Shown: positions 11,614 to 60,070 of the stretch, piece by piece | Layout of the letters: every line of letters begins with the position of its first letter | How positions within the stretch are numbered: the first letter of the stretch is position 1 | NCBI GenBank assembly: GCA_964393485.1 | Contig: CAYMTW010000002.1 | Location: 9,140 to 73,139, forward strand | From: an uncultured Melioribacter sp. | Lineage (GTDB): Bacteria; Bacteroidota; Ignavibacteria; Kapaibacteriales; Kapaibacteriaceae | Direction of reading: 5' to 3' | Length of the DNA: 64,000 nt | Made by a program: the position numbers and the translations under genes | The notes under the pieces: model-generated | What the model saw: only the letters and a program-made list of their open reading frames with translations | The model's database searches: none | Told to the model about the DNA's origin: nothing

Positions 11614-11629
11614 GGTTGTATCAGGGGGC

Positions 11630-12529
11630 TTACATCGGTGGGAGGATCATCCACGCAATGCGATCGGTTGCCGCAAGGGGTGTCGACGTCTCGACGGTGA
11701 AGGTATCGGCTGCAGCGTCCACCGTCGTCACGGATAGTGAGATCGTCGTACCAGCTGCGTTGATCATTGTGACGATCGGAATCGCACCGGTGGGAATGTC
11801 TGCTCCAGCGGTGATCGTGTGTATGTGGTTGCCAGGCGTTGGGATAAAGAGTCCACGTGCAACTTCGGCGATCGCACTGCGCCAGCTCATCACTCCAGTA
11901 GTCGTTGATGACAGTACCATGCCTGCCGCAGCGGGGGCCTGCTCGGGAAGCGTGTAGGTAACATCCCCTGCCTGCGTGGACGCTCGAAAGGCCGTGTAGT
12001 TTGTTCCGGATGCACTTGGTTCAGCAAATCGAAGCTCAGTGGCTGCTCCTGTGTTTGACAGAAGGATCGTACGGGCAAGATCGATCGGAGCTTTGGGTGC
12101 TGAGGTGCCGAATCCGATCCAGCCCTGGCTGGGGCCAGCCACCCCGACTACGCGTATTGCCTCAGTGGCGTTGGCAGCGATGACAAGGTCCTGAGCGTTT
12201 CTTGTGCCCAGATATTGCTGTCCTGGCGCGATACCTCCGGAACGTACATCCGATCCGGACAAACTCCAGAAGTCGGTGGTACTCCAGCCAAGTGCAGCCG
12301 TGCTGCCGGTCACCGACTGGATTGTCATAACCTGTCCCGACTCGCCGATCGTGGTGGGCAACATGAGTGAATAAGACGTCACTCCGGTGGAGGGAATCGT
12401 TAGTCCGATGGTCGAAGGCTGAGCGTTGCGCAGTTGTAGCGTTCCGGTCGTGAGACTTTGTGCCTGCAGGTGAAGTGAAAGTGCCTCCAGTGTCATGATG
12501 GACAAAAGGAGGTGAATCAATGGGCGCAT
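11630..12529 (-). CDS. Secreted repeat protein, cluster member 2 of 4. Start placed at the internal ATG that begins the signal peptide; the leftmost alternative start is 12586.
   Basis: Signal peptide MRPLIHLLLSIMTLEALSLHLQAQ followed by S/T/G-rich beta-strand-like repeats. The C-terminal tail ...TDRIAWMILPPM parallels ...DERIEWSITP of the upstream gene. Confidence 0.5.
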   Translation of the reverse strand: MRPLIHLLLSIMTLEALSLHLQAQSLTTGTLQLRNAQPSTIGLTIPSTGVTSYSLMLPTTIGESGQVMTIQSVTGSTAALGWSTTDFWSLSGSDVRSGGIAPGQQYLGTRNAQDLVIAANATEAIRVVGVAGPSQGWIGFGTSAPKAPIDLARTILLSNTGAATELRFAEPSASGTNYTAFRASTQAGDVTYTLPEQAPAAAGMVLSSTTTGVMSWRSAIAEVARGLFIPTPGNHIHTITAGADIPTGAIPIVTMINAAGTTISLSVTTVDAAADTFTVETSTPLAATDRIAWMILPPM

Positions 12530-12567
12530 AGAAACCTCGACGTATAGGTGAATGAAATGAAGGGTTA

Positions 12568-13314
12568 TCAGGGAGTAATGGACCATTCGATACGCTCATC
12601 CGGCAACAGCGGCGCTGATACTGTGAAGATGAGCTCGTTACTACCGGTATCTATATCAAGCTGCACCGCAAGCGTCGTTGTGGGCGAGACACTGCGAAAG
12701 GTTACGCGCGCAGTGGTCGTCAGTACCGTCGATGGTCGAACCCGGTAGGTGGCCGCGAGCCCATCTCCGGCTATACTGCCGCGCTCGGGGGCAAGCGGAG
12801 CCGCCGAAATCGTAAGCGTCGTGCCATCACGCTGCACACGGATGCCGTTGGAACCACGCAGTGACACGGGCCCCGAGAGCTCATTGAGCGACGTCACCAA
12901 CCCGGTCGCTCTCGGGTCAAGCCGTGCGGCGACATCTGCATAACCGGCATGTAGTGCTGATGTCAGAGGTATGATCTCTTGGCGCGGCTTGCGCTCGCTC
13001 TCGCTTTCCAGCGTCAGGCCGATGAAGGCCCGGACCCCTCGCAGCATCGTGTCGGCAAGTGCTACGGTGCGACCAAGCACGATCTCACTGCGTCCAGCAA
13101 TAATCTCGGCAACAACCGATTCCTCCCAAAGAGGAGCGGTAGTGAAGGGATCATCGTACCAGCGAACGACGAGTCGATGCAGACCGTCATCTGGTACGGG
13201 GCTGCCAAACACTGCCGTCACAGTCACCTGCAGTGGCGCTTGAGCTCGGCATGTCAGATGTGCAAGACACACGCTGACAAGAAGGATCATCTGTTGTATC
13301 GAAGACGTTGTCAT
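12568..13314 (-). CDS. Secreted protein, cluster member 1 of 4 (first gene)
   Basis: A 248-aa ORF with a signal peptide (MILLVSVCLAHLTCRAQA) and a C-terminal ...LPDERIEWSITP tail shared with cluster member 2. Confidence 0.5.
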   Translation of the reverse strand: MTTSSIQQMILLVSVCLAHLTCRAQAPLQVTVTAVFGSPVPDDGLHRLVVRWYDDPFTTAPLWEESVVAEIIAGRSEIVLGRTVALADTMLRGVRAFIGLTLESESERKPRQEIIPLTSALHAGYADVAARLDPRATGLVTSLNELSGPVSLRGSNGIRVQRDGTTLTISAAPLAPERGSIAGDGLAATYRVRPSTVLTTTARVTFRSVSPTTTLAVQLDIDTGSNELIFTVSAPLLPDERIEWSITP

Positions 13315-19196: not shown

Positions 19197-19327
19197 GTCG
19201 GACCTCGGAATTGTGCAGATGGAGGAACGTTGGACGGAGGAGAAAACCCTCTTGGGCGCGGAATGGTTCCGCTGATGTGATGGGCCACAGGCGCTCGAGG
19301 ACGACAGATGTTGGATATTTGCAGGGA

Positions 19328-20104
19328 ATGAACATGCAATCTACGATCAGAATAGGGCTCATCGGGAACGGAAGGGGCATGAGACTTCTTGCTTTCCTGG
19401 CATTGGTGTGCGTTTCTTCCGCGTCTCTGCCAGCGGCAACAGAACCGGCGTTGGGTTCCCTTCTTAACCCGCGGCAGGCTATGAGGGCTACAGGTACGGT
19501 CTCGGTTCAGGGGGCGATGAGCATCAGCGGAGTTCCATTCGATGCCACGCTGCATTCCGATACGATCGTCGTGAACACGGGATCTCCATTCGGGATGAAA
19601 ACCAGCAGCGTCTATGCCCGCGCCGACACGTTTGTTGTTCTGAATTACCTGACTCGTCAGGCAATCGATGGGGACCCCCAGTCGGACAAGCTCTCGGGCA
19701 TGTTGCCTATTCCACTTGGCATCAACGACATCCGGAGTCTTGTGCGGGGAGTACCTCCGGGTGACCTCGCGTCGTTCGTGTTCCAGGCACGACGTCAGGA
19801 CGGCAGTCTACTCTTCCGCAGGCGCGATACGGCCACGGTTGAATTTGCCTTGGTTGATTCAGTCTCGCGCACCTTACGGCAGTATCAGCGTAAGGAGGCC
19901 GGCGGTCGAACGCTTCTGAACGTCACCTATGGCAGCTATCGTTCTTCGGGTGACGTCATGGTCCCCTACGGGGTCGATGTGACGGCTAATGATGAAGCCC
20001 AGAAGGTGCAGTTCCGTTTTGACGACGTGCAACTGGTAGCACCGACAGAGCCACTTCGCCCTTTGCCTATCCCGTCATCGTTCACGCGGGTGACGCTGAA
20101 CTGA
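19328..20104 (+). CDS. Secreted hypothetical protein (possibly LolA-fold / DUF4292-like)
   Basis: The signal peptide MRLLAFLALVCVSSASLPA lies just downstream of the chosen ATG; 19379 is an alternative start. Its stop overlaps the lptD-like start by 1 nt. The family assignment is weak. Confidence 0.4.
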   Translation: MNMQSTIRIGLIGNGRGMRLLAFLALVCVSSASLPAATEPALGSLLNPRQAMRATGTVSVQGAMSISGVPFDATLHSDTIVVNTGSPFGMKTSSVYARADTFVVLNYLTRQAIDGDPQSDKLSGMLPIPLGINDIRSLVRGVPPGDLASFVFQARRQDGSLLFRRRDTATVEFALVDSVSRTLRQYQRKEAGGRTLLNVTYGSYRSSGDVMVPYGVDVTANDEAQKVQFRFDDVQLVAPTEPLRPLPIPSSFTRVTLN

Positions 20105-22632
20105 TGGTCACTCGCGGACGCATCGTCGCTATGTTCGTCCTGGTCGCCGCTTTCGCGGTCGCTCGGTCGGCAGCTCAGGACACGTCCCGCGTCAGTCTGC
20201 AGCAGGATCAGGAATCAACCGACACCGTCGTCATTTTCACCGCTCGAGACAGCGCCCATCTGCGCGTCAACGACCGCACGCTGACCCTGCGCGGTAACGC
20301 TCGCGTGGATATGCGCGAGCAGCGTCTTGAGTCAAGTCTGATTATCATCGACTTCAACGCCGGTATCATGCGTGCCCAGGGCGCTCGTGATTCGACCGGC
20401 GCGATCACGGGCTTCCCGATGTTTCGTGATGCTGGAACAGAGTATGCTGGAAAGAGCATGGTGTACAACTTTCAGACCCGAAAGGGGCGAGTGGAGTTCG
20501 GCGAAACGGCCATAGACGGCGGGTACTACTATGGCAGTGCTATCAAACGGGTGGATGAAACAACTGCCTTCATCAATGGTGGGTGTTACACCACGTGCGA
20601 CGCTCCCCACCCGCATTTCTACTTTACATCGCCGAAGATGAAAGTTGTGGCCAATGACAAGATCTTTCTTGATCCGCTGATCTGGTATGTGGATGACGTT
20701 CCGGTCTTTGCCCTGCCACTGGGGATGTACTTCCCCATTGAGCGCGGACGCCGCTCGGGTATCATCGTACCCTCGCCGGTTGTAACGGCCGACCGTGGCG
20801 TGGTGCTGCAGAATCTTGGGTACTACTTCGCGATCAGTGACATTGTGGATGCCGAGATTACGACGGATCTGACCACCAAAGGGGGCTTCACGCTGTTCGG
20901 AAGGGGCCAGTATGTCGTGCAGGATCGCATGCGTGGAAACGCCGAGGTCCAATTCGGATACACACGCTTTTCCGTGACCCAGCCATACAACATGAATCTG
21001 GGTTTTCGACTTTCCCATTCACAGCAGCTGCGTCCTGGTGAGAGCCTTGTCGCAGATGTATTCTATGGCACGCAGCGATTGCTTCAGAATACCTCGCTCA
21101 ATCCCAATGACCGCGTCCGGCAAAACGCCCGCAGCAACGTATCCTACCAGCGCACATTCTACAATGGCATGACGTTCAATGCGGCGTACTCGAGCGATCA
21201 GAATCTGGTCAACGGATCCGTCACCCACAGCCCAAGTGTCAACTTCAGTATTCCGCAGTTGCAGCCCTTTGCGGGCGTTGCCACGGCTGATTCGTGGTTG
21301 TCCGAAGTGCAGTTCTCCTACCGGGCTACCGGACGCTACACGGCCAGTTCTTTGCGCAGCACCGACACAGGTGCGTTCACCGTCAGTGAATCATCCGTGA
21401 TCGAACACCGTCCGTCGATGACACTCACTCCGAAGCTTGGCTACCTGATCGTTGCCCCTTCTCTGAGCTACTCGGAGAATTGGTACTTCCAGCGCTTCAC
21501 CCAAGGTGTGAGGTCATCCGACAGCACCCTGGAAACACGCCGTGAGGGTGGTTTTTTCCGGGAGTACACCTACGGAGTCGGAGTGAACGTTTCGACGTTT
21601 CTCTACGGTCTGGCCTATCCAAAGGTCTTGGGTATTCAGGCAATCCGTCACACCCTGCAGCCGAGCATTGGTGTAACGTATGTGCCGAATCAGTCGGATA
21701 CGTCGTTGGGGTTCTTCGGGCAGTACACCAGTCCGGTGACGGGTCAGACCATCTCCTATCCTCGGTTTGGCTCCGGCTCTGGTCTGGCGTCACGTCAGAC
21801 ACAGATGCTGGTAACAGGTTCGTTTCTGAACCGGGTATCGATTAAGACAATGGATGGAGATACTGTTGGCAAGCCATTGGAAATCTTCACACTTGCATTG
21901 AATACTTCTTACAACTTGGCGGCTGATTCACTGGGGCTTGCACCGGTGTTTTTCAATTTTCGAACGCCGATGCTCGATGCTCTGGAGTTCAATCTAAGCG
22001 GAACGCTCAACGCCTACGATCAGGTTTTGGCGTCCGACCCGGCCACCGGACGTCAGACCTGGCGCGACGTGAGCACGAGTGTGATGGCTGCCGGCAAGGG
22101 GCTCGCCCGTCTGACCAATCTCAACCTGCAGATGGGTTCGCGGTTTTCCTCGCAAGGGGTCAGCCCTACGCGAACAAATGGTCAGGGGGCAGATAGCAGC
22201 GTCCCCTCGAATGACCTTCGGTCGCGGTTTGATAGTCGGCTGAATGCCGAACAGGAACGATCGGACATCTACGGTGACATGACTCCCGGCTGGTCACCCC
22301 TTGCCATTCCGTGGGAAGTATCGGGTCAGATAGTCTATAGCTACTCGAGACCCAATCCGGACGCTGCGTTTCAGTCTCTCAATGCCGTGATTCGGGGGTC
22401 CTTTTCCCTGACGCCCACAACGCGTGTGGGCATCTCCGGATCCGTCGATCTACTCAACGGTGAGGTCCTGAACCCGATCATTGACATCAGCAAACAGATC
22501 CATTGCTGGTACCTGACGCTCAACTGGGTGCCGCTGGGATTCAACCGGGGCTTCTTCCTGCGCTTTGGGGCTACTGCCCCGCAGCTCCGGGATCTGGTCA
22601 TTCCTAAACAATCGACGCCGTTGTATCGGTAG
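20104..22632 (+). CDS. OstA/LptD-like outer-membrane LPS-assembly protein
   Basis: An 842-aa ORF with a signal peptide and an N-terminal OstA-like beta-jellyroll region (TLTLRGNARVDMREQRLESSLIIIDFNAGIMRAQG). A long beta-rich C-terminal region consistent with a large barrel follows. Confidence 0.55.
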   Translation: MVTRGRIVAMFVLVAAFAVARSAAQDTSRVSLQQDQESTDTVVIFTARDSAHLRVNDRTLTLRGNARVDMREQRLESSLIIIDFNAGIMRAQGARDSTGAITGFPMFRDAGTEYAGKSMVYNFQTRKGRVEFGETAIDGGYYYGSAIKRVDETTAFINGGCYTTCDAPHPHFYFTSPKMKVVANDKIFLDPLIWYVDDVPVFALPLGMYFPIERGRRSGIIVPSPVVTADRGVVLQNLGYYFAISDIVDAEITTDLTTKGGFTLFGRGQYVVQDRMRGNAEVQFGYTRFSVTQPYNMNLGFRLSHSQQLRPGESLVADVFYGTQRLLQNTSLNPNDRVRQNARSNVSYQRTFYNGMTFNAAYSSDQNLVNGSVTHSPSVNFSIPQLQPFAGVATADSWLSEVQFSYRATGRYTASSLRSTDTGAFTVSESSVIEHRPSMTLTPKLGYLIVAPSLSYSENWYFQRFTQGVRSSDSTLETRREGGFFREYTYGVGVNVSTFLYGLAYPKVLGIQAIRHTLQPSIGVTYVPNQSDTSLGFFGQYTSPVTGQTISYPRFGSGSGLASRQTQMLVTGSFLNRVSIKTMDGDTVGKPLEIFTLALNTSYNLAADSLGLAPVFFNFRTPMLDALEFNLSGTLNAYDQVLASDPATGRQTWRDVSTSVMAAGKGLARLTNLNLQMGSRFSSQGVSPTRTNGQGADSSVPSNDLRSRFDSRLNAEQERSDIYGDMTPGWSPLAIPWEVSGQIVYSYSRPNPDAAFQSLNAVIRGSFSLTPTTRVGISGSVDLLNGEVLNPIIDISKQIHCWYLTLNWVPLGFNRGFFLRFGATAPQLRDLVIPKQSTPLYR

Positions 22633-30282: not shown

Positions 30283-30327
30283 GCCCCCTGAAACGCCTTT
30301 TTGGGTATGTCAGGGGGCTGTTTTTTT
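30283..30327 (+). terminator. Putative rho-independent terminator after pepF
   Basis: An 8-bp GC stem (GCCCCCTG 30283-30290 pairing with CAGGGGGC 30311-30318) is followed by TGTTTTTTT. The 20-nt loop is long for an intrinsic terminator. Confidence 0.5.
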
Positions 30328-30388
30328 GATAGCTTTGCCGGTATCGCAATTGGCAATTAGTCTCCATTCACATCATGCGGTTTCGCAT

Positions 30389-33300
30389 ATGAACAATTTT
30401 CAACGGTTTTTCGCTTCCGTGCTCTGCAGCCTCGTGCTCGCCACGACGGTCATGCTCGGCCAGTCGCAGCCACTTACCACCTGGTCCTTGAGCAGCGGGA
30501 ACTACACCTTTACAGACTGGCTCAACACCAATCTTGCAGGTTCCTATCCGAATGCCATGGTGTTCCATACGGTCGCCGAAATCGACATGCCGTCCGATGC
30601 GCCTGTCGTTGGTGACTTCAACTGCGCCTATAACCTTACGAGCGGTGCACGCATCAATGGTTTAGGTACGGGTGGACTTGGCTTCATCAACACTGGAACG
30701 ACGCTCTGTAACTGTCAGTTTGTCGGCGCTGCAGTGCTCTCATTGAACACTGTTGGTCGGGCACAGATCGGTGTGACATGGACATCGTCGGTCAACAGCT
30801 CCGGATCGCGCCCTTATGCGCTGCGCTTGCAGTACCGTCTCAGCACGGTTGGTGCATGGATCAACGTGGTCAACAATAACGTTCCTGTAGAATATGTTGC
30901 TCCGCTTAACACGTCGGGGATCGCCACTCAGCGTATCATCACAACGACACTTCCAACAGTCTGCGAGAACCAGCCAACACTCCAACTCCGGTGGGTGTAT
31001 TTCCAGGCGCCGGTGTTTTCTTCGGGAGGTCGTCCGGGTATCACGTTCGATGATCTGACGGTCTCGTCGCAGTCGACAGTCGGAACAGCGACTAATCTCG
31101 CTATCGAGAACATCGTTCCGTCCGTACCTTCACAAAACACTCCATTCGCTCTTCGTGTCCGTGCTGTTGATGCGCTGGGAGCTGCGAAGAACCTCACAAC
31201 CTCGACCACTGTGCAGGTGCAGGTGAACTCAGGAACAGGTTTTCTGACCGGAACAACGGCTGCAACAATCCCTGCCGGCAGCAGCTTTGTTGACCTAACA
31301 AGCTTGTCGTACACAGCTGCTGAAACGGGTGTACAGTTGCGTGCCGTATCAATTTCGGGTCAAATTCTAACTCAGGGCCTCTCACCGGTACTGACCGTTA
31401 ACGGTCCGCCATCATATGCTCTTGTGACTGGTGCGCAGACGACCGGATATGTCAACGTGCCGTTCAATCCGCTAACCGTGACGGTCTATCGTGCCGATAA
31501 CACCGTCGATCAGAATTACGCCTCGAATATCACCATCAGTCGTCTGTCCGGCCCGGGTTTGGTTACGGGCACGACAACTGTCCAGGCATCTGCCGGCGTT
31601 GCCATTTTCAATAACGTGGCTGTGAGTGCAGCAGGTACATACCAGTTGCTTATTTCCGCACCTGGGGTACCATCGATCACGCTGCCATTTGCAACTGCTG
31701 CGACTACGCCAAGCCTCATCACTGATATTGTCCCTCAGTTCATCAACGCGCGCACTGCATCCGGCACGTGTAATTCGTCAGTGTCGGCATTCCCAATCCC
31801 CGTGTATGCTCGTGTAACGTTCACCAATTTGGCACCCAACACCGTGTATCGGTACAACACCGGACTTGCACTCGATCAAGTTGTGACGTCAACCGGTGGC
31901 GGATTCAATGTCCACTACAATGCCAACGACAACTCCTATTTCTACGCCGCTGGAAAGTCATTGACCAATCCTGGTGAGTTTTCTACCTTTTCCACTCTTC
32001 CTGGTCAGACGTCGAAGACGATCTGGATCAACCTTGTTGCTTCGACGAATGCGGCATTTCAAGAGCTGGGAACGGCCTACTGGCGTGTCTCGCTGGCAGA
32101 CAATGATGGAAATCTCATCAATCGTTATCAGCTAACACAAACATCAACGCCACTTCGTACAGGTGCGTTGACGACGCAGGCAACCGGAATCGCAGACGAT
32201 AACTCGCAGTTGACGGAGCGCAATTTCGTTTTGCTGTATGATAATGCTGCTGGCACAGGTCGCCCACTTTCTATCGCTCTCATCCAGCGTCAAAACACCT
32301 TGGTTGCCGGAGCTGAGACATTCTATGCCACCCGGCAGTCACTGCCTACGTCATGGGCCACGTTCATTCCGAATACGCTGGCAACGGGTGTTCGCCGCAT
32401 TGAAGAGCGCGATGCCATCACTGGCAATATTGTAAATGCCATCACCTCAGTTGACGGCCGCTGGAACAATGTTCAGACGAACCCGTCTGATCTTGTCGCC
32501 TATCCTGCCGGTCCAGGTGGATTTTCGGCACCGATCATCATGCAGACCCCGCGCATCACGGTCTCAGCTCCAGTGTTCGGCGACACACTCTGTGCCGGCT
32601 CGACAGCCGTCGCCCGCTTCGTCGCTCGTGGCATGGCCAATGTAGACGTACAGTTCTCATCGAATAACGGAGCTTCATGGCAATCCATGGGCATCGTTCC
32701 TGCCACTTCAACGGCTGTGAACTGGACTGTTCCAGATATTGAGTTTGCAGGTCAGTGCTTTGTTCGCGTCGTCGGTGTGGATCGTCCCGAAATCAGCGCA
32801 ACATCGCAAATGTTTGCCGTCGCTTCGGCCGTTCGCGTTGTCTCACAACCAGACTCACGTAATCTGTGTGTTGGCGATCGCCTATCACTTGTTGCCGTTA
32901 CCGCTGGCGCTGTTCGTAACTACCAGTGGTTCAAGAACGACGTTGCTATCAACGGAGCAAACGGTCCGTTGCTCGTCATTGACCGCGCTCAGTTCAACAC
33001 AGCCGGTGTTTATCGCTGTGAGCTCTGGGGCTTTGGTCAGTGTGGCAACAGCCGTACAAATGACATCCATGTTCGCGTGGCACGCCCAACAGTGATTGTC
33101 AATCAGACACGCAATGCCCCGGTCAAGATCGGTGGTACGGCGTTCCTTACTGTAGAAGCAGAAGTCCCGAACGAAGCCATCTCCTACCAGTGGTACAAGG
33201 GCCAAACGGCTCTTGCCGATAATGGACGCATTGTCGGTACAAGCTCGAATCGTCTCGAGATCCGCGGTGTGACCAGCAACGACCTTGGGACAGATTATTA

Positions 33301-34450
33301 CTGCGTTGTCACAGGTGTTTGTGGTAGTGCCACATCACGTCAAGCACGTATTCTGACGTCGGGCGTGTTTGTTGATTTCGCCTCAAACAACGTCAGCGTT
33401 TGTGATGGTCAGAAGACCGTGATTTCAGGCAACGCCTATGCAAACCCTGCTTCTGGTGCTCTGCGCCTGCAGTGGTGGTACAAGGGTGCACCGCTCGCTG
33501 ACGGAGGCCGTTACAATGGTGTTCAGACAAACACTCTGACCATTGATCCTGCAACGACGCAGGACGTTGGTGAGTACACGCTTTATGCTGAGCTTGCTGA
33601 TAACAGCAACGTCAATTCAAGCGGAGCTGTGAATCTTGTTGTTGGTGGCGGAACGACGATCACCACACAGCCGGTTAGCACAACCGTCTGCGAAGGCGCT
33701 TCGTTTACCCTCTCGGTTGCTGTTGCCGGCACGGGCACTGCGACGTACCAGTGGACCTTTGACGGAAGTGATCTGGCTGGACAGAATTCTCCTGCGCTGA
33801 CGCTCAGTGCTACAAAGGCTCGTGGCGGTTCGTATGCTGTGCGCATCGTCACGTCCTGCGGAACAGTCACGTCAAACAGCGCAACGATTACTGTTCGCGA
33901 TGCAACCAAGATCACCCAGCAGCCACCAGCAACGGTTGCTGCAACGGTTGGACAGCCACTGAACATCACACTCTCAGCTACAGGATCTGGCACGGTTCAG
34001 TATCAGTGGTTCAAGGATGGAACGTCACTTGCGGGTGAAGTCACTCCAGCCTACGCCAAGGCAGCCTACGCGCTGACAGACGCCGGTAAGTACTGGTGCC
34101 GTGTCCGCTCTGAGTGCGGCGACGTATTCTCGGATACGACCACGGTAACAACCCGTCCGGGTGTTGTTGGTGTGGATGACGAAGACGCTGTGGTTGCCGG
34201 CTATTCGGTTTCGCCGAATCCTGGTTCAGAAGCTATGAGCGCTCGTCTGGTTCTTGCTGCACCTTCGAATGTCGTGATGACGCTTGTCAACCTTACCGGC
34301 GAAACGGTTATCGCGATCGCTGATGCCCGCCTTGCTGCCGGTGAGTATGCCCTGCCGTTCAGCGTTGCGGACCTTGCCGCTGGCTCGTATCAGCTCATCG
34401 CGATGATCAACGGTCAGGCTCAGACTCGTACCGTCGTCGTGGTCAAGTAA
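30389..34450 (+). CDS. Giant secreted cell-surface protein with tandem Ig-like domains and a C-terminal Por/T9SS sorting domain
   Basis: The ATG at 30389 begins MNNFQRFFASVLCSLVLATTVMLGQ (signal peptide). At least five I-set-like Ig repeats with the YQW[FY]K...G.Y.C core occur at about 90-aa spacing. The final ~80 aa (SVSPNPGSEAMSARLVLAAP...GSYQLIAMINGQAQTRTVVVVK) match the T9SS C-terminal-domain pattern. Confidence 0.65.
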   Translation: MNNFQRFFASVLCSLVLATTVMLGQSQPLTTWSLSSGNYTFTDWLNTNLAGSYPNAMVFHTVAEIDMPSDAPVVGDFNCAYNLTSGARINGLGTGGLGFINTGTTLCNCQFVGAAVLSLNTVGRAQIGVTWTSSVNSSGSRPYALRLQYRLSTVGAWINVVNNNVPVEYVAPLNTSGIATQRIITTTLPTVCENQPTLQLRWVYFQAPVFSSGGRPGITFDDLTVSSQSTVGTATNLAIENIVPSVPSQNTPFALRVRAVDALGAAKNLTTSTTVQVQVNSGTGFLTGTTAATIPAGSSFVDLTSLSYTAAETGVQLRAVSISGQILTQGLSPVLTVNGPPSYALVTGAQTTGYVNVPFNPLTVTVYRADNTVDQNYASNITISRLSGPGLVTGTTTVQASAGVAIFNNVAVSAAGTYQLLISAPGVPSITLPFATAATTPSLITDIVPQFINARTASGTCNSSVSAFPIPVYARVTFTNLAPNTVYRYNTGLALDQVVTSTGGGFNVHYNANDNSYFYAAGKSLTNPGEFSTFSTLPGQTSKTIWINLVASTNAAFQELGTAYWRVSLADNDGNLINRYQLTQTSTPLRTGALTTQATGIADDNSQLTERNFVLLYDNAAGTGRPLSIALIQRQNTLVAGAETFYATRQSLPTSWATFIPNTLATGVRRIEERDAITGNIVNAITSVDGRWNNVQTNPSDLVAYPAGPGGFSAPIIMQTPRITVSAPVFGDTLCAGSTAVARFVARGMANVDVQFSSNNGASWQSMGIVPATSTAVNWTVPDIEFAGQCFVRVVGVDRPEISATSQMFAVASAVRVVSQPDSRNLCVGDRLSLVAVTAGAVRNYQWFKNDVAINGANGPLLVIDRAQFNTAGVYRCELWGFGQCGNSRTNDIHVRVARPTVIVNQTRNAPVKIGGTAFLTVEAEVPNEAISYQWYKGQTALADNGRIVGTSSNRLEIRGVTSNDLGTDYYCVVTGVCGSATSRQARILTSGVFVDFASNNVSVCDGQKTVISGNAYANPASGALRLQWWYKGAPLADGGRYNGVQTNTLTIDPATTQDVGEYTLYAELADNSNVNSSGAVNLVVGGGTTITTQPVSTTVCEGASFTLSVAVAGTGTATYQWTFDGSDLAGQNSPALTLSATKARGGSYAVRIVTSCGTVTSNSATITVRDATKITQQPPATVAATVGQPLNITLSATGSGTVQYQWFKDGTSLAGEVTPAYAKAAYALTDAGKYWCRVRSECGDVFSDTTTVTTRPGVVGVDDEDAVVAGYSVSPNPGSEAMSARLVLAAPSNVVMTLVNLTGETVIAIADARLAAGEYALPFSVADLAAGSYQLIAMINGQAQTRTVVVVK

Positions 34451-34493: not shown

Positions 34494-34527
34494 AAAAGGG
34501 GTATGCGAAACCGCATGCCCCTTTTTC
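34494..34527 (+). terminator. Rho-independent terminator between the two giant cargo genes
   Basis: A 10-bp stem (GGGGTATGCG pairing with CGCATGCCCC, one G-U pair) with a 4-nt loop (AAAC), flanked by an A-tract upstream and TTTTT downstream. Confidence 0.8.
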
Positions 34528-34561
34528 GTAGAATCGCACCATTCACGCATCCAAGACTTCT

Positions 34562-37500
34562 ATGATCAATTCGCTACGTTCCCTGCTGATCGTCTGCATC
34601 AGCGTGGTTGTCTTCATCCCCTCGCATGCGCAGGAAATGGTCGTCAGCGAGTATCTGAACATGGTCGATCCAACGCTTGAGTGGACCGAGCTCCTTGTAG
34701 TAGCGGATAATCTGAACGCCGTGGGTTGGATCGTTACCGACAATAATACTGGACAGATCACACGTCAGGGTGGACCTCAATTCAAGGACGTTCCGCTGTG
34801 GCGGAATCTTCGGGCCGGAACGATCATAGTTCTTTGGCACCGTGCTTTTCCCGCGGGTTATGTGCAGGACGAAGATCCTGCCGATGGATATCTTGAACTG
34901 TCGGCCCGTGATGCCCGGTACTTTACGACGTATATGTTTGCCCCGGGTGTTGACAATGACATGAACATCAATCAGACGGGTGAGCTCGTTGAACTAATGA
35001 GATCAGATCTGACCCATGTTCACGCGCTTGGCTTCAACAAGCCCACGGGACCGTCATATAACAACATACCGATGCCGAAAGTCAATGTAGACTCGGCAAA
35101 CATCTCCAATTCACGATCTGTACGTGTGTCTGGTCGTACACTCGGGGCCTATGGATTTGGTGTCACGAAGGATTCCGCGGTTGTCGGCTTCAATGATTCG
35201 CGTGGTCTTCCCAACCGTTGGGATCTGCCAAGGACGGCTATCGGACTTGTGAACATCAATCATTGGTTCTGGCGCGAGACTCGTGAGCCCAAGTGGTCAG
35301 GGGCACCCGCGATCAGTCTTCTTTCACAGTCGGCAAATAGCAACACGATCGAATGGACGGCGCTGGATGATCCGAATCCACAGGATTCGACCACCGGCTA
35401 TCTCATCCTGAGAGATACACTCGGGTTCGCAGGCTTCCCGTCTGGCGTGATCCGAGACGGTGCTACGATTGCCAAAGGGGCCAGGATCGGCACCTCGACC
35501 GTGATCGATATCAGGCCCACGAAGCTTGGTCGGCGCCTGGTGGACTCAACAAACATCCTGTGTGGAATGACCTATACCTACCGGGTCTATGGGTACCGCT
35601 ATCGTCGCGATGACCTGCTGTCGGTCACCGATGACACCACAGCCCGTGGACGTCAATACACGGACGGACGCTGGTGTGAGTCGGCGCCCATCACCAAGAG
35701 TAACCCCACCAAGCCCCTTATTCAGGCATCGCGCCTGCAGATCTGTCCCGGGGACACAGTCACCCTTACAACGACCACCACCAACGCCGTTCTGTATGAA
35801 TGGACTGTCAATGGGCTCTCCGTGCCCGTTGGCGGCACGACACGAATTGTGGTCAGAGCTACCGGTGAATACCGCCTTGTCATCAAGGGGGCTGACGGAT
35901 GTTCTGCAATGTCAGATCCTGTTGTCATTTCAGCTCTGCCAGCGCCGTCGGTGGAGATCACACCGACGGGCCTGCAAACGATCTGTCCAGGTGACAGTGT
36001 CAAGATCACGGCCATCACATCGGCGGCTTCGTATGAATGGCTACGAGATGGTGTTGCCATTCCGGGAGCAACGCAGAACACCTACGTTGCGAGACTCGAG
36101 GGCGACTATCAGGTCCGGATCGCAACTGCGGCGGGCTGTCCCGGCATCTCCGCAGCACTGCGCCTGCGGCATCAGAACGTCAAGGCACGGATGTCTCCGA
36201 ATCTAGTGGACTTCGGCACTATTGGACAGTGCAGAGCCGACACCACGGTTGACGTTGAGATCATCAATGAAGGTCTGGCTACGATCACGGTTACCAATGC
36301 GACATTCCCTCCGGGATTTGCCCTAGTCTCGCCGCCACCCGGTTTTCAGGTTGCTGCGGGCAAGCGTCAGTCGGTGCGGCTGGTGTTCTCACCATCCGGG
36401 CCGGGCACGGCCTCCGGAGCAGCATCGTTTCTTGTGCAGCCGTGTTCGACACCGATCCCTTTTACAGTTCGCGGGCAACGCACGGCCGTCTCCGTGGCCT
36501 TGAACAAACCAGGGGTCGACTTTGGCACCTACACGGCATGCCCGACCGGAAACATCCGACCAGATTCATCATTCTGCGTAACGAATTCCGGCACTGAGGC
36601 CATTGTCATCGGAGTTCCGCGGGTGGATCCGCCGTTCTATCTCCTGACGGACTTCCCCAAGCCGGTCACGATCGCGCCGGGTGCGAACTTTTGCATCAGT
36701 ATCATGTATCGCCCCTTGGGAGCGGACCTTGATCGTGGTGTCATTCAGACCATTGGATTCCCCTACTCATCGGCCTCATGTCAGGACACGTTACGTGCAC
36801 GCGTGCAGGGGGCTTCGTATCGTCCAGTACTCGTTGCCGACGAACCGAGCGTTGATGTGGGTGTTGTGCTTACCTGTGCAAAGCGTGTCGATACGGTTGT
36901 CAGTCTGACAAATCAGTCGTTGGTACCAGTCACGGTGTCGAACATCGTGGGTCAAGACGTCACCTACACTGGTGGAACTGTGACGATTCCGGCGAAGACG
37001 TCGAGGCTTTTTTCGATCAGTCTGACGCCATCAGTCGCAACAGGTGCGTTCTCGATCATCGCCAAGGCCGTGCTGCTGCCCTGCAACGATTCGGTACCCG
37101 TCCAGTTTGATGGAGTGATGCTCAATGCCTCGTACACACAGGATCGCGACGAGATCGACTTCGGAACGATCCTGCTGTGTGAGCGAAGCTCCGCTTCGGC
37201 ATCGTTTTCGATCTCAGCACGAGGACTCTCAGGTCTGCGCTCTCGACTGACGTCGATCTCGGTCAGAAGTCCGTTTGTGGTTTCGGTCACCGCCGGACAA
37301 AGCTTCCGCGACTCACTGCGTGTCAATGTCACGTTTACGCCACCTGGGCAGGGGGCATTCATAGACACCATCATCTATTCCATCGATCCGTGCTCGGTGG
37401 CGAGGAACGTCATTGTGCGGGGTGTTGCCGTCGATCCGAAGCGGTCAACATCGATCACCAGCACCGACTTTGGAATGGTCACCGCCGGCAGCTCCGCCCA

Positions 37501-38452
37501 GCGTATGGTGACGGTCACCAACACGGGTACAGCCGACGTGGTTTTGGAAGCTTTGGAGGGCGTTACAGCCCCATTCAGGATCGCAACGCAGCGTCCAGCA
37601 TTGCCCGCGCGTCTCACTCCTGGTCAGAAAGCCGAGATCGACATCGAGTACGTGTTTGCCGACTATGACCGCCGTGATACCATCCGAATGGTCAGTCGCA
37701 CGTCAGGAAGTTGCCCCGACACCACCACAGAAGTGCTTACGGGATCGACGGTCGCGAAAGGCACCGTAACGGGCCTTTCCATTGTGGCACCGATCGATGC
37801 TCGGGCCTTTGCCGGTGAGGCGGTAACGCTGCCGTTTACGCTAACCTCCATTGCTCCGCTGGACTCGCTCGATCTTCGACAGATGACGATCGACCTGGCC
37901 TACGATCCGCGCCTGATGCGTCCTGACGCGGTTACCTCGGGTCTGCCCGGCGCATCGGCATCCATCCAGGAGCTCGTGCCCGGCCGTGCAACTGTTACCA
38001 TCACCTCAACACGTCCGATCGTGGCAGTGAATCCTTTCTTTAGCCTTCGTGCCCGGACCTATGTTGCTGAGCCGGACGTGACGATTCTTGATGTAGATAC
38101 GGCCATTGCCCAGGGGACGATTATCACTGGTCGTGATGGACAGCTGACGGTTCTGCGGGAGTGTGATATCACTGCCGGCTCCGTGTCGATTAAGCGTCCT
38201 GTTGTCTTCCGTGTGCTACGTCAGGATAACAGCGTGCTGCAGATCGAGTTCTCATCAGTGACGTCTGATCTCGTCGATATCATGGTGGCCTCACTGACCG
38301 GTCACGTCACGACCATGCAGGTCAAGCCGTCGTTGGCCGATGAGCTGCATCGCCTTGACGTTTCGATCGATGACTTGCCATCTGGCGCCTATGTGTTACA
38401 CTATCAGCATGGCCGGCACGCACGGTCTATTCCGTTCACGATTGTCCGCTAA
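34562..38452 (+). CDS. Giant secreted protein carrying a lamin-tail-like domain, Ig-like domains, ASH/choice-of-anchor-D-like repeats and a T9SS C-terminal sorting domain
   Basis: Signal peptide MINSLRSLLIVCISVVVFIPSHAQ. The N-terminal segment is LTD-like (EWTELLVVADNLNAVGW). Two Ig-like units follow (LYEWTVNG, SYEWLRDG). At least five repeats follow of the form [VI]DFGT...C....V.I.N.G...[VI] (ASH-like). The C-terminal ~80 aa (VLQIEFSSVTSDLVDIMVASLTGHV...GAYVLHYQHG) is T9SS-CTD-like. Confidence 0.65.
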   Translation: MINSLRSLLIVCISVVVFIPSHAQEMVVSEYLNMVDPTLEWTELLVVADNLNAVGWIVTDNNTGQITRQGGPQFKDVPLWRNLRAGTIIVLWHRAFPAGYVQDEDPADGYLELSARDARYFTTYMFAPGVDNDMNINQTGELVELMRSDLTHVHALGFNKPTGPSYNNIPMPKVNVDSANISNSRSVRVSGRTLGAYGFGVTKDSAVVGFNDSRGLPNRWDLPRTAIGLVNINHWFWRETREPKWSGAPAISLLSQSANSNTIEWTALDDPNPQDSTTGYLILRDTLGFAGFPSGVIRDGATIAKGARIGTSTVIDIRPTKLGRRLVDSTNILCGMTYTYRVYGYRYRRDDLLSVTDDTTARGRQYTDGRWCESAPITKSNPTKPLIQASRLQICPGDTVTLTTTTTNAVLYEWTVNGLSVPVGGTTRIVVRATGEYRLVIKGADGCSAMSDPVVISALPAPSVEITPTGLQTICPGDSVKITAITSAASYEWLRDGVAIPGATQNTYVARLEGDYQVRIATAAGCPGISAALRLRHQNVKARMSPNLVDFGTIGQCRADTTVDVEIINEGLATITVTNATFPPGFALVSPPPGFQVAAGKRQSVRLVFSPSGPGTASGAASFLVQPCSTPIPFTVRGQRTAVSVALNKPGVDFGTYTACPTGNIRPDSSFCVTNSGTEAIVIGVPRVDPPFYLLTDFPKPVTIAPGANFCISIMYRPLGADLDRGVIQTIGFPYSSASCQDTLRARVQGASYRPVLVADEPSVDVGVVLTCAKRVDTVVSLTNQSLVPVTVSNIVGQDVTYTGGTVTIPAKTSRLFSISLTPSVATGAFSIIAKAVLLPCNDSVPVQFDGVMLNASYTQDRDEIDFGTILLCERSSASASFSISARGLSGLRSRLTSISVRSPFVVSVTAGQSFRDSLRVNVTFTPPGQGAFIDTIIYSIDPCSVARNVIVRGVAVDPKRSTSITSTDFGMVTAGSSAQRMVTVTNTGTADVVLEALEGVTAPFRIATQRPALPARLTPGQKAEIDIEYVFADYDRRDTIRMVSRTSGSCPDTTTEVLTGSTVAKGTVTGLSIVAPIDARAFAGEAVTLPFTLTSIAPLDSLDLRQMTIDLAYDPRLMRPDAVTSGLPGASASIQELVPGRATVTITSTRPIVAVNPFFSLRARTYVAEPDVTILDVDTAIAQGTIITGRDGQLTVLRECDITAGSVSIKRPVVFRVLRQDNSVLQIEFSSVTSDLVDIMVASLTGHVTTMQVKPSLADELHRLDVSIDDLPSGAYVLHYQHGRHARSIPFTIVR

Positions 38453-38497: not shown

Positions 38498-39481
38498 TTG
38501 AAGGTTCTTGTCACCGGTGCTACCGGATTCGTCGGAAGTCACGTCGTTGATTCGTTGCTTGAGCAGGGGCACACTGTCTTCTACATCGCGCGATCGACGT
38601 CTACCATGCGCTGGCTTGAAGGCAAAGACGTAACACGCGTTGATGGATCCCTTTTCGATGTTGAATCACTTCGGCATGCTGTATCTGGCATGGATGTGGT
38701 GATTCACGTCGCTGGCCTTACGGCGGCCAAGAACGAGCAGGAGTTTCATCGCGGAAACTTCGAGGCAACGCGCAATCTCCTTGATGCCGTGCGCGCATAC
38801 AATCCCGGGCTTTGCAGGTTCCTCCATGTGTCATCACTTGCAGTGGTGGGTCCGTCGGCTTCGATCGATGCACCGGTTGATGAGACCTCGCCGCTGCGGC
38901 CGATAACGGCCTATGGCCGCACGAAGAAGCTCGCCGAAGATGCCGTACGTCAGGCAATCGATATCCCCTCGACCATCGTCCGTCCTCCGGCTGTTTATGG
39001 ACCTCGTGACGAAGCGATCCTTACATTTTTTCAAACAGTTGGCAAGGGGCTGGCAACCTACATTGGTTTTGGCCACAAGAGCGTCAGTCTGGTCCACGTG
39101 CGCGATCTGGCCCGTGGGATCGTCATGGCCGCCATGGACGAACGCGCCGTCGGCCAGACCTACTTCATCTCTTCGGATGAGTTCTATACCTGGCCGCAGA
39201 TTGCCGCCATGACCGGCGCGGTCATGGGCAAGCGTCGCTTGATCCCGATCCGACTTCCCCACATTGCCGTGCTATTCATCGCTGGCATTTCGGGGTTCTT
39301 TGGCAAGCTCTCCGGAAAGCCCCCTGTCCTTGATTTCGAAAAGGGGCGAGACCTGATCCAGGAGTACTGGATCTGCAGCACGCAGAAGGCCCGCAACGAG
39401 ATTGGCTATAAGCAGCAGGTGTCCTTGCAGGAAGGCATCAGCGAAACTGTTTCCTGGTATCGTCAGCAGCGCTGGCTATGA
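38498..39481 (+). CDS. NAD-dependent epimerase/dehydratase family protein (extended SDR). TTG start.
   Basis: The N-terminal Rossmann motif MKVLVTGATGFVGSHVV is present. GAGG lies 5 nt upstream of the TTG. The catalytic YxxxK region is present. Confidence 0.75.
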   Translation: MKVLVTGATGFVGSHVVDSLLEQGHTVFYIARSTSTMRWLEGKDVTRVDGSLFDVESLRHAVSGMDVVIHVAGLTAAKNEQEFHRGNFEATRNLLDAVRAYNPGLCRFLHVSSLAVVGPSASIDAPVDETSPLRPITAYGRTKKLAEDAVRQAIDIPSTIVRPPAVYGPRDEAILTFFQTVGKGLATYIGFGHKSVSLVHVRDLARGIVMAAMDERAVGQTYFISSDEFYTWPQIAAMTGAVMGKRRLIPIRLPHIAVLFIAGISGFFGKLSGKPPVLDFEKGRDLIQEYWICSTQKARNEIGYKQQVSLQEGISETVSWYRQQRWL

Positions 39482-58300: not shown

Positions 58301-59029
58301 CTAGCGCACAAGTCCGTAGCCGCCATCGACCACGATAGTCTGTCCGGTGATATAGTCCGAACAACGCGCAAAATACCGCACGGCGTCGACAACGTCAGAG
58401 GCCTGACCGTGCCGTTTCATGGGAATGCGCCCCGTATCGACGAGTGAGGCGTCCGAATCTTGCGCCTCAAGGGGCTGAGCAATCGCCCCGGGCGCTACAA
58501 TGTTCACAGTGATCATCGGGGCAAGACTGCGCGCCAGCGAGTGCGCCAGCGTTGCCTGGGCTGCCTTGCTGGTGTTATACGCTGCGCGGTCGCGCCAGAT
58601 CTCGCGGGCGCCCAGCGAGCCGATCACCACGATGCGTCCTGTCCTCTGCGCCGCGCGGCACTGTTGCTGGTATGCCCGCGCAATGGTTAGCAGCGGCAGA
58701 GTGTTCACGCGCATGGCGCCAAGCAGATCATCCTCATCAAGCTCGTCCACGGGCGTTGCCGCAGGAAACACCCCGACGTTATAGACGACCACATCGGCCG
58801 CACCGAGTTCGTCGCAGAGTCCGTTCATGGACGCCGTCAGTTCATCGGGAATGGTCACATCGCACCGGCGCATCGTACAGCGCACTGTGGTCAGTGACGA
58901 GCGCAGCTCGGTTGCCTGATCGGCCGAGCTGTGATAGGTCAGGCCGACGTCGTAGCCATCGGAGGCAAGCCCCCTGACAATGGCCGCACCGATGCGTCGG
59001 GCCCCGCCGATGACGATCGCTACCGGCAT
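58301..59029 (-). CDS. Short-chain dehydrogenase/reductase, pteridine-reductase (FolM/PTR1)-like
   Basis: The N-terminus VAIVIGGARRIGAAIV carries the GGxRRIG variant of the SDR cofactor motif typical of pteridine reductases. The YxxxK active site (YNTSKAA) is present. It is adjacent to ygfZ. Confidence 0.55.
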   Translation of the reverse strand: MPVAIVIGGARRIGAAIVRGLASDGYDVGLTYHSSADQATELRSSLTTVRCTMRRCDVTIPDELTASMNGLCDELGAADVVVYNVGVFPAATPVDELDEDDLLGAMRVNTLPLLTIARAYQQQCRAAQRTGRIVVIGSLGAREIWRDRAAYNTSKAAQATLAHSLARSLAPMITVNIVAPGAIAQPLEAQDSDASLVDTGRIPMKRHGQASDVVDAVRYFARCSDYITGQTIVVDGGYGLVR

Positions 59030-60033
59030 GAGGCATCCGTCATTGGCGGCAGAACCAGCTCGCAGCGCACGGCCGCGCCGTCATGGACCACGTCGATGTG
59101 TGTGCCGGCATGGGCGTACTCGCCACGCACGTAGCCCAGGGCGTAGAAGCTCGTGCCGTCAAGACCCGCGATCACGCTGGTGATGAGTCCCACGGCCGCG
59201 CCTTCGGCCATCACCGGGTCGTCCTGTGTCAGCGGCAGGGGGCTTACAAACCCCATGATGCGCTGCTTGACCTTGTTGTAGGAATCCAGGCGGGCCACCA
59301 CTTCCTGGCCGATATAACAGCCCTTGGTAAACGACGTTAGGTGCAGGAGTCCGGCCTCGAGCGGGTTGTAGGAGAGCGTCCACTCGTGTCCGCGCCGGCC
59401 CATGCCGGCCAGCACGCGGATCGCCTCAACATCCTCGTCGCTCAATTGCGGAAGTTCGTCGGCTGATGCCAGCAGGTGCACGCGCAGAGCATCAATGGCC
59501 TCAGGGCTGCCAAGGATCCAGAAGGACACTTCGGCCGGCGATGGCAGGCGAACGATGCGCAGTTCGCCCTGCGGGGTCTCGAGCGTGGTCCACTGGGCAA
59601 TGGTAAAGGCCGAGACATCGATCTCAGTAAGCTGGGCGACGATGTCGGCCGCGCGTGGACCCAGCACCTCGACGGCATCGAACTCCGAGGAGCGATCACG
59701 CAGGCGAACATCGTCCATGATAACGTACTTTCGTACCCACTGGATGATCTCCGAAGCGGCCTCTGGCGAGCCCAGCAGAAGCGTCGAGGCGTCGTCCTGC
59801 AGGAGCGTCACAACGTCGATGATGCGGGCCTTATCGGTCAGCAGCACCGTCTGGCGTCCGCTGCCGGAGGGCATCGAGCGCAGGTCGTTCGTGGTCAGGC
59901 GGTGCAGCAGATCCACGCGGTCCGCCCCGGTCAGGTCAATGACCGTAAGTCCGGACCGGTTGGCCCAGGCCGCATGGTTCAGGCATGACTGCCGTCGGCG
60001 TCGGATGTCGTCGATCGTCACTGTCGGTATCAT
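59020..60033 (-). CDS. ygfZ: Folate-binding Fe-S cluster repair/assembly protein YgfZ (GcvT-like fold)
   Basis: A 337-aa ORF with a GcvT-like N-domain (VIDLTGADRVDLLHRLTTNDL) and the C-terminal KGCYIGQE motif characteristic of YgfZ. Confidence 0.7.
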   Translation of the reverse strand: MIPTVTIDDIRRRRQSCLNHAAWANRSGLTVIDLTGADRVDLLHRLTTNDLRSMPSGSGRQTVLLTDKARIIDVVTLLQDDASTLLLGSPEAASEIIQWVRKYVIMDDVRLRDRSSEFDAVEVLGPRAADIVAQLTEIDVSAFTIAQWTTLETPQGELRIVRLPSPAEVSFWILGSPEAIDALRVHLLASADELPQLSDEDVEAIRVLAGMGRRGHEWTLSYNPLEAGLLHLTSFTKGCYIGQEVVARLDSYNKVKQRIMGFVSPLPLTQDDPVMAEGAAVGLITSVIAGLDGTSFYALGYVRGEYAHAGTHIDVVHDGAAVRCELVLPPMTDASCR

Positions 60034-60070
60034 TTTCTCACTTGTAAAACGCCCGCAAACCTACGAAACC

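Follow-up and report, generated by a model that had tools for sequence, protein, structure and literature searches.

The gene at positions 34562..38452 (+ strand) of a 64,000-nucleotide stretch of DNA from an uncultured Melioribacter sp. (contig CAYMTW010000002.1; the whole stretch that was analysed is referred to here as the window) specifies a large secreted protein built of successive beta-sandwich modules, with a type IX secretion tag at its end. It is an ordinary, though uncharacterised, representative of a protein family that is conserved in Kapabacteria and Ignavibacteria. The best reading of its role, to which a probability of about 0.55 is assigned, is that of a fixed-length type IX secretion system (T9SS) cargo, anchored by its C-terminus, that presents a conserved N-terminal head and works together with the product of the gene directly upstream.

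The open reading frame (ORF) begins with ATG and specifies 1296 amino acids (aa), in agreement with a preliminary description of this DNA. From the N-terminus the product comprises a signal peptide, a head of ~360 aa composed of a lamin-tail-domain-like (LTD-like) part and an FN3-like part, two Ig domains, five domains of the choice-of-anchor-D/ASH type, a cohesin-like domain, and a T9SS type A C-terminal domain (CTD). An AlphaFold2 (AF2) model of the whole protein has an overall predicted local distance difference test (pLDDT) score of 83.9. By eye, and thus from a reading of the sequence only, the N-terminal MINSLRSLLIVCISVVVFIPSHA preceding QE reads as a Sec signal peptide (aa 1-23; 34562..34630, +), with cleavage predicted between PSHA and QE. 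The residue that such cleavage would expose, Gln24, is invariant among 43 orthologues, which fits the Q-rule, for which Ignavibacterium album is among the highest reported values (PMC5837995).

The assignment of the C-terminal segment (38177..38452, +; a flexible linker, the putative T9SS type A CTD at aa ~1216-1296, and the stop codon) draws on orthologues, a family profile hidden Markov model (HMM), and a structure model rather than on the window protein alone. The window protein itself scores 12.2 bits with Por_Secre_tail (PF18962) against a threshold of 27 and has no match to TIGR04183. Three orthologues exceed the PF18962 gathering score of 27 at the same columns (P0100, 29.0 bits; P0118 and P0099, 31.1 bits each), and Por_Secre_tail is detected at E <= 0.01 in 13 of 38 family members. 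In the AF2 model a disordered linker is followed by a 7-strand sandwich (aa 1216-1294, pLDDT 80-86) matching the CTD fold as described, a 7-strand beta-sandwich with a 3+4 arrangement (PMC11285876). The domain ends in a basic residue and contains an invariant glycine (G1247) as well as a G-x-Y motif (G1275, Y1277); it is the least conserved end of the protein, identity falling from 49% in the head to 21% in the CTD. When applied to ~1.6 Mb of related DNA, the family CTD HMM picks out the very ends of proteins from at least nine unrelated ORF clusters, among them the upstream partner protein at aa 1300-1373 (E 9e-17), and three of these proteins pass the NCBI T9SS type A model TIGR04183. That one module caps many unrelated secreted proteins indicates the behaviour of a sorting signal. 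The CTD proposed in the preliminary description is therefore upheld by the orthologue scores, the modelled 7-strand sandwich, and the HMM matches on unrelated proteins.

In having a Sec signal peptide, a beta-sandwich body, and a terminal 7-strand CTD of ~80 aa after a flexible linker, the protein resembles the T9SS type A cargos of Bacteroidota and other Fibrobacteres-Chlorobi-Bacteroidetes (FCB) phyla defined by Por_Secre_tail/TIGR04183, and as in those cargos the CTD is common to many unrelated proteins of one lineage. It differs from them in that its CTD is too divergent for the curated thresholds and in that a T9SS in the host lineage is deduced from genomes only. The system has been reported as one that may also be present in Ignavibacteriota (PMC11285876); a search of the literature for T9SS in Kapabacteria or Ignavibacteria returned general statements only.

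Five choice-of-anchor-D/ASH/HYDIN-VesB-type domains occupy aa 543-1062 (36188..37747, +). The NCBIfam model choice_anch_D (NF012200) matches four stretches of the window protein with 67.3 bits against a cut-off of 45, and three Pfam models exceed their gathering thresholds, namely HYDIN_VesB_CFA65-like_Ig (PF22544, 45.4 versus 25.5), ASH (PF15780, 36.2 versus 27), and DUF1573 (PF07610, 33.7 versus 26.1). HMMs built for each repeat position from the alignment of 43 orthologues cross-detect the other repeats, and the HMM of repeat 1 detects all five at an independent E-value of 2e-7 or below, placing the repeats at aa 543-645, 646-752, 753-856, 857-950, and 951-1062. The preliminary count of at least five repeats resembling ASH or choice-of-anchor-D domains can accordingly be made exact. 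The closest match of each repeat is the repeat at the same position in other species, so that the five are positionally orthologous and the array is old and fixed; the same repeat architecture is common to all of the ~120 full-length orthologues listed. Conserved cysteine pairs are found in repeats 1-4 (557/628, 660/740, 772/841, and 873/944).

The suggestion that five or more ASH copies are unusual for a bacterium did not hold, the best model being NCBI's bacterial choice-of-anchor D, a domain also present in other proteins of related loci. The family profile does match the eukaryotic Hydin structure 7sqc over the repeats, as well as chains of Hydin, FAP47, and FAP65 in structures of cilia. 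What the protein shares with the broader PapD-like, Ig-fold group of choice-of-anchor D/ASH/HYDIN-VesB/DUF1573 proteins is five tandem domains scoring above the NF012200, PF22544, PF15780, and PF07610 cut-offs. Its difference from the ciliary ASH proteins lies in a proposed extracellular bacterial stalk, in which repeats 1-4 carry conserved cysteine pairs, and the kinship is one of domain fold only.

The two Ig-like units on the N-terminal side of the array (aa 382-455 and 456-542; 35705..36187, +) are of the Ig_7 or CHU_C-associated type and were rightly recognised in the preliminary description. The Ig_7 match of the window protein is below threshold (E 9.5e-4) and recurs in 20 of 38 orthologues, each unit contains an invariant cysteine pair (395/447 and 475/526), and in a search of the PDB the family profile aligns the Ig pair (aa 368-533) with the grappling hook protein GhpA in entries 9flp and 9ncf.

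Two further domains had been overlooked. On the C-terminal side of the array a cohesin-like domain (aa ~1063-1205; 37748..38176, +) is indicated by matches of the family profile to PDB entries 2vn5 and 1g1k at E 5e-8, by Pfam Cohesin (PF00963) in orthologues (37.4 and 36.4 bits versus a gathering score of 24.1), and by an AF2 model with pLDDT above 90 for which Foldseek returns cohesins (E 4e-8, TM 0.67-0.73). Two invariant cysteines, Cys1051 and Cys1201, lie on either side of it. The likeness to the cohesins of cellulosomal scaffoldins is one of both fold and sequence profile (2vn5 and 1g1k, E 5e-8; Foldseek TM 0.72). The setting is different, since among the annotated ORFs of the window and the related loci no dockerin-bearing protein is found, a dockerin-type ligand not having been specifically sought. 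To our knowledge no cellulosome has been described in the host organism.

The second overlooked domain is an FN3-like sandwich (aa ~246-381; 35297..35704, +), supported by the AF2 model, by Foldseek matches to FN3 domains, and by Pfam fn3 in two orthologues. It forms the second part of the head, the first being an LTD-like core (aa ~24-160) with a conserved extension (together aa 24-245; 34631..35296, +), and in the AF2 model the two sandwiches pack as one rigid unit (pLDDT 86.8, predicted template modelling score 0.86). The head is the best-conserved segment of the protein, with mean orthologue identities of 49% over aa 24-245 and 45% over aa 246-381 and dozens of invariant positions in the orthologue alignment. 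The FN3-like part contains an invariant cysteine, Cys334 (35561-35563), for which a conserved partner is lacking, whereas the other conserved cysteines are all paired within domains. Cys334 could be a free thiol or take part in an intermolecular disulfide.

The preliminary description had read the N-terminal region as a lamin tail domain, and motifs resembling that domain (VVSEY...EWTEL...GW and L.AGTIIV) can be picked out in the head by eye. The profile searches do not bear this assignment out. Pfam LTD (PF00932) has no match at E <= 1 in the window protein or its head, and although it matches 7 of 21 orthologous heads (best E 1.8e-6), all are below the gathering score of 34.3, the best-scoring orthologue, P0100, reaching 26.3 bits over aa 19-154. 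A profile of the head searched against the PDB finds no lamin chain, and alignment of the head with the lamin A tail by hhalign, using a verified lamin sequence, gives a probability of 0.3%. The 50 highest-ranking Foldseek matches of the head model, searched as one two-domain unit, are to tandem FN3 domains at low TM, and no link to a lamin tail emerges. Because the Pfam, PDB-profile, hhalign, and Foldseek comparisons all fall short of significance, the first part of the head is called LTD-like here as a label and is not filed as an LTD.

The head also occurs outside the full-length architecture. In locus L075 a 466-aa paralogue (L075:1548-2948) consists only of the head and a T9SS type A CTD (TIGR04183, 38.4 bits versus a cut-off of 23) and lies directly upstream of a full-length family gene, and head-bearing proteins of ~540 aa are likewise present in an exhaustive profile search. 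A head common to the target and the upstream partner was considered and rejected, the head HMM reaching an E-value of 1.8 at best on the partner cluster.

Among the protein matches listed, ~120 are full-length relatives of 1281-1336 aa whose identity to the window protein ranges from 92% down to 23% and whose source labels are metagenome-assembled genomes (MAGs) of Kapabacteria, Ignavibacteria, or Bacteroidota. Scanning of one genome per GTDB species yielded 181 stretches encoding the head, all of them in MAGs resembling Kapabacteria or Ignavibacteria. Complete or near-complete genomes with the family include CP058732.1 (Kapaibacterium Ch6), BPHK01000001.1, BPHJ01000001.1, and OW818676.1, and the nearest to the window, at 96%, is the MAG that contains JBILLF010000017.1. 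Eighty of these 181 stretches were kept as loci and the ORFs of the fetched loci were clustered; the 80 loci derive from 79 assemblies, indicating that the family is essentially single-copy. In the exhaustive search of 1.84 billion representative sequences with the head profile, 245 clusters are found at E <= 1e-30, nearly all of them ~1300 aa long with the head N-terminal, and a few variants have 540, 1500-1700, or 2400 aa. Several MAG bins that contain the family gene appear to be mislabelled, their record titles naming Patescibacteria, Chitinophaga pinensis, Hyphomicrobiales, Bradyrhizobiaceae, or Chloroflexota (L010, L015, L028, L042-L047, L049, and L086); in most of them the partner is upstream, and one such bin, MAG CAZGHI01, holds two family copies (L044 and L047).

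In the window the gene pair is preceded by genes for LptD, GlmS, MeaB, M24, TPR, and M3 proteins and followed by genes for an epimerase, a penicillin amidase, an M17 protein, and an ECF sigma factor. This order is collinear in relatives whose proteins are 65%, 49%, and 40% identical, and base composition is without a break at the pair (GC 0.53-0.59, compared with 0.55-0.60 in the flanks). The locus is a housekeeping-block setting occupied by a conserved family and not a variable adhesin island. The preliminary description had spoken of an island, had anticipated presence/absence polymorphism, and had proposed a synteny comparison in related genomes; that comparison places the pair within a collinear housekeeping block. 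The island reading is rejected on the collinear synteny, the uninterrupted GC content, and the near single-copy state of the family, and synteny down to 40% identity and the occurrence of the family in 181 species-level genomes do not agree with the expected polymorphism. The downstream gene, an NAD-dependent epimerase/dehydratase (38498..39481, +) identified as an ORF with a family match, starts 46 nt after the target and is probably co-transcribed with it in the host lineage. In 34 of the 49 dereplicated loci that have the pair it follows the target; elsewhere other genes take its position, and it is not a conserved partner of the target.

The gene directly upstream is of a different standing. 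Its ORF (30326..34450, +) has 1374 codons for amino acids, and translation probably begins with the Met at 30386, giving a partner gene at 30386..34450 (+) with a product of ~1354 aa, recognised by its Ig_3 domains, the family CTD HMM, and its adjacency. Five Ig_3 stretches are detected by Pfam (E 6e-34), and the N-terminal ~800 aa are uniformly conserved and have no family match; in related loci the partner is evenly conserved along its length and has 1319-1439 aa. In 49 of 72 evaluable species-dereplicated loci the first ORF upstream of the target is the partner, encoded on the same strand, whereas the downstream neighbour of the pair varies among eight different genes in the 49 paired loci. 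Adjacency of the partner thus outlasts the surrounding synteny, which argues for a functional link, and in some clades the intergenic gap is as small as -7 to 34 nt. The tandem pairing of two CTD-bearing proteins noticed in the preliminary description is confirmed by the CTD match of the partner and by these 49 of 72 loci. One clade has a further large CTD protein, of 1442 aa, encoded before the pair (L057:1385-5713, and also in L059, L069, L071, and L088). With an IgGFc_binding domain, choice-of-anchor D domains, and a CTD of type A, it brings the number of consecutive genes for CTD cargos to three.

Between the two genes of the window lies a hairpin, GGGGUAUGCG-AAAC-CGCAUGCCCC followed by U5 (34494..34527, +), that resembles an intrinsic terminator. 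The intergenic region folds with -39 kcal/mol, a z-score of -4.3 relative to shuffled sequences, and a strong hairpin (-18 to -28 kcal/mol) with a U-rich tail is found between the genes in 41-43 of 55 paired loci, with stems that differ by lineage (for example GGGGUAUGCG, GGGGAGUAUGC, GGGACGUAUGGUG, GUGGCAGAUUGGCC, and CUGUGGUGCGCC). In the other paired loci the gap does not exceed 34 nt and the hairpin is missing. The upstream hairpin in the preliminary description is thus genuine, and the related statement that the two genes are bracketed by clean terminators and independently terminated is not borne out, as a hairpin follows the upstream gene and none follows the target, where the 45 nt past the stop codon fold no better than shuffled sequences (z -0.27). 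The two genes may be transcribed together, in which case the hairpin would lower expression of the second. Directly after the U-run a TAGAAT sequence (34529-34534) is situated 28 nt before the ATG; it is kept as GUAGAAUCG in the closest relatives (L003, L010-L012, and L017) and not in more distant ones, and it could serve the second gene as a -10 element. A promoter of its own is not claimed for this gene, a consensus promoter scan being empty and TAGAAT being conserved among close relatives only.

From the domain architecture, its conservation, the synteny, the recurrence of the hairpin, and the use of the CTD as a common sorting module, all of which are observed, we infer secretion, anchoring, co-assembly with the partner, and a role for the hairpin in stoichiometry. 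The protein would be exported to the periplasm via Sec, where its beta-sandwich modules would fold, most of them stapled by conserved disulfides (both Ig domains and repeats 1-4, with Cys1051 and Cys1201 flanking the cohesin-like domain). The 7-strand CTD would then target the protein to the T9SS translocon, and by analogy with type A cargos the CTD would be lost and the protein attached to the cell surface by its new C-terminus. The outcome would be a fixed-length rod of eight sandwich domains (one cohesin-like, five choice-of-anchor-D, and two Ig) that holds out the N-terminal head as its ligand- or partner-binding end. In Kapabacteria the target would act together with the upstream CTD-bearing Ig-repeat protein, which the terminator-like hairpin would probably render the more abundant of the two, and the pair would build a surface coat or fibril of two components, comparable in function to the TfsA/TfsB surface layer (S-layer) pair. 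A surface-layer or adhesin role, already put forward in the preliminary description, is the most reasonable functional guess for such a protein.

TfsA and TfsB of Tannerella forsythia are CTD proteins of 133 and 151 kDa, and their S-layer is T9SS-dependent (PMC4175972). The pair described here likewise consists of two large CTD proteins, with masses estimated from residue counts at ~136 and 140 kDa. The tfsA and tfsB genes are reportedly adjacent in T. forsythia. The O-glycosylation sequon of Bacteroidetes is D(S/T)(A/I/L/V/M/T), and the corresponding pattern D[ST][AILVMT] occurs 18 times in the target compared with 6.8 expected from composition (z 4.6; none of 500 shuffles reaches 18). Orthologues have 7-22 copies and the partner only 2, so that, in a difference from TfsA/TfsB, the enrichment is confined to the target and the partner is poor in sites. 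The enrichment would be in line with a glycoprotein coat, given a sequon defined for the Bacteroidetes system that may not be that of the host. The sequons of the target span aa 177-1181 and have the highest density in the window.

A more ambitious version of the proposal is tentative and should be regarded as doubtful: target and partner might constitute a surface structure of two components that defines the Kapabacteria lineage, either an S-layer-like coat or a fixed-length fibril, exported by a T9SS outside the classical Bacteroidota, with the terminator setting the stoichiometry and with a head (possibly O-glycosylated and having an unpaired cysteine) serving in lattice contacts or ligand binding.

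Several observations weigh against a T9SS cargo that works with its partner. The CTD of the window protein is itself below every curated threshold, and none of the T9SS core genes for PorK/L/M/N, Sov/SprA, PorU, and PorV is present among the ~30 ORFs of the 64-kb window scanned with Pfam or NCBIfam. The partner is not adjacent in one sub-clade (L009, L056, L058, L063-65, and L079-80), and the most distant family members (L002 and L007) stand alone without an adjoining partner, indicating that the family is not strictly dependent on it. In the window the hairpin and the ATG are only ~35 nt apart, an interval in which a consensus promoter scan found no promoter. In one sub-clade, a TonB-dependent receptor gene is located upstream instead of the partner.

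A rival reading is that of a stand-alone T9SS-secreted binder, either a fibrillar adhesin or a released soluble protein, in which case adjacency of the partner would merely be inherited gene order. Family members without the partner in several clades, the strong terminator-like hairpin that separates the two genes in the window, and the paralogue in L075, which with only a head and a CTD suggests that the head can function alone, are all consistent with this possibility. It is nevertheless considered rather unlikely, as the partner stays upstream while the downstream neighbour changes in eight ways, gaps of -7 to 34 nt in some clades imply co-transcription, and both proteins carry the same kind of CTD. 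It would be more radical to suppose that the C-terminal sandwich is a structural Ig-like module and that the protein is periplasmic or otherwise exported and not a T9SS substrate at all, as the 12.2 bits versus 27 with Por_Secre_tail, the missing TIGR04183 match, and the lack of T9SS core genes among the scanned window ORFs might suggest. That at least nine unrelated families in related loci end in the same module, and that in several of them, as in orthologues, it clears curated T9SS type A thresholds, makes this quite improbable.

The size and repetitive beta-sandwich build of this T9SS cargo also recall the gliding-motility surface adhesins of the SprB/RemA kind, which are moved by the gliding machinery, and an ORF with a sub-threshold AgmC_N match is located ~25 kb away (8117-10195). 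Such a role is very improbable, however, given that the CTD is of type A and not the type B CHU_C of SprB (in P0097, E 1.2e-5 with Por_Secre_tail versus 0.0037 with CHU_C), that no adjacent PorP/SprF-like or gld gene occurs in the loci examined, and that the length is fixed at ~1300 aa and does not run to thousands of residues. Least probable of all, to the point of being hardly tenable, is a contact or predation device like the grappling hook protein GhpA of Aureispira, even though GhpA (9flp) is the best PDB match of the family profile (E 2e-174, 30 stretches). The likeness consists of Ig_7-type Ig domains and is limited to the Ig pair (aa 368-533), which recurs many times in GhpA, whose 5898 aa include dozens of these domains. 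No match extends to the head, to the choice-of-anchor-D repeats, to the cohesin-like domain, or to anything else in the protein.

If the reading as a C-terminally anchored T9SS cargo that displays its head and works with the partner is correct, the protein would belong to the core of the cell envelope in Kapabacteria and Ignavibacteria, which are widespread in lakes, bioreactors, and hot springs and essentially uncultured. Its constant length and conserved head would provide a handle on T9SS use outside Bacteroidota, on lineage marking, and on cryo-electron tomography and structural work. General concepts would be unchanged, as the protein would add one more modular T9SS cargo and the traits that had struck the earlier reader are common ones.

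Some other features of the window and the related loci may be recorded. In a hot-spring-type clade, four consecutive ORFs that could be assigned to no family lie beside the family gene (L008:13858-18769, -), and the one of 777 aa has faint PorE and PD40 matches; its identification as PorE was dropped, the score being 19 bits versus 600. An 875-aa S8 subtilase ORF of the window (59402-62029), in which the family CTD HMM detects no CTD, overlaps another ORF (59020-60033), which has 337 aa and lies on the opposite strand. Within 19211-22632 a 297-aa ORF that weakly matches Flavobacterium LolB1, an outer-membrane lipoprotein insertase (E 8e-6, below the cut-off), abuts the downstream LptD_2 gene. 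Finally, a block of four ORFs at 8117-13314 (-) has almost no family matches; its 692-aa ORF at 8117-10195 matches the AgmC N-terminal domain of adventurous gliding at E 1.5e-36, with 126 bits versus a cut-off of 275, and is enriched in the glycosylation sequon, with 10 copies compared with 3.5 expected.

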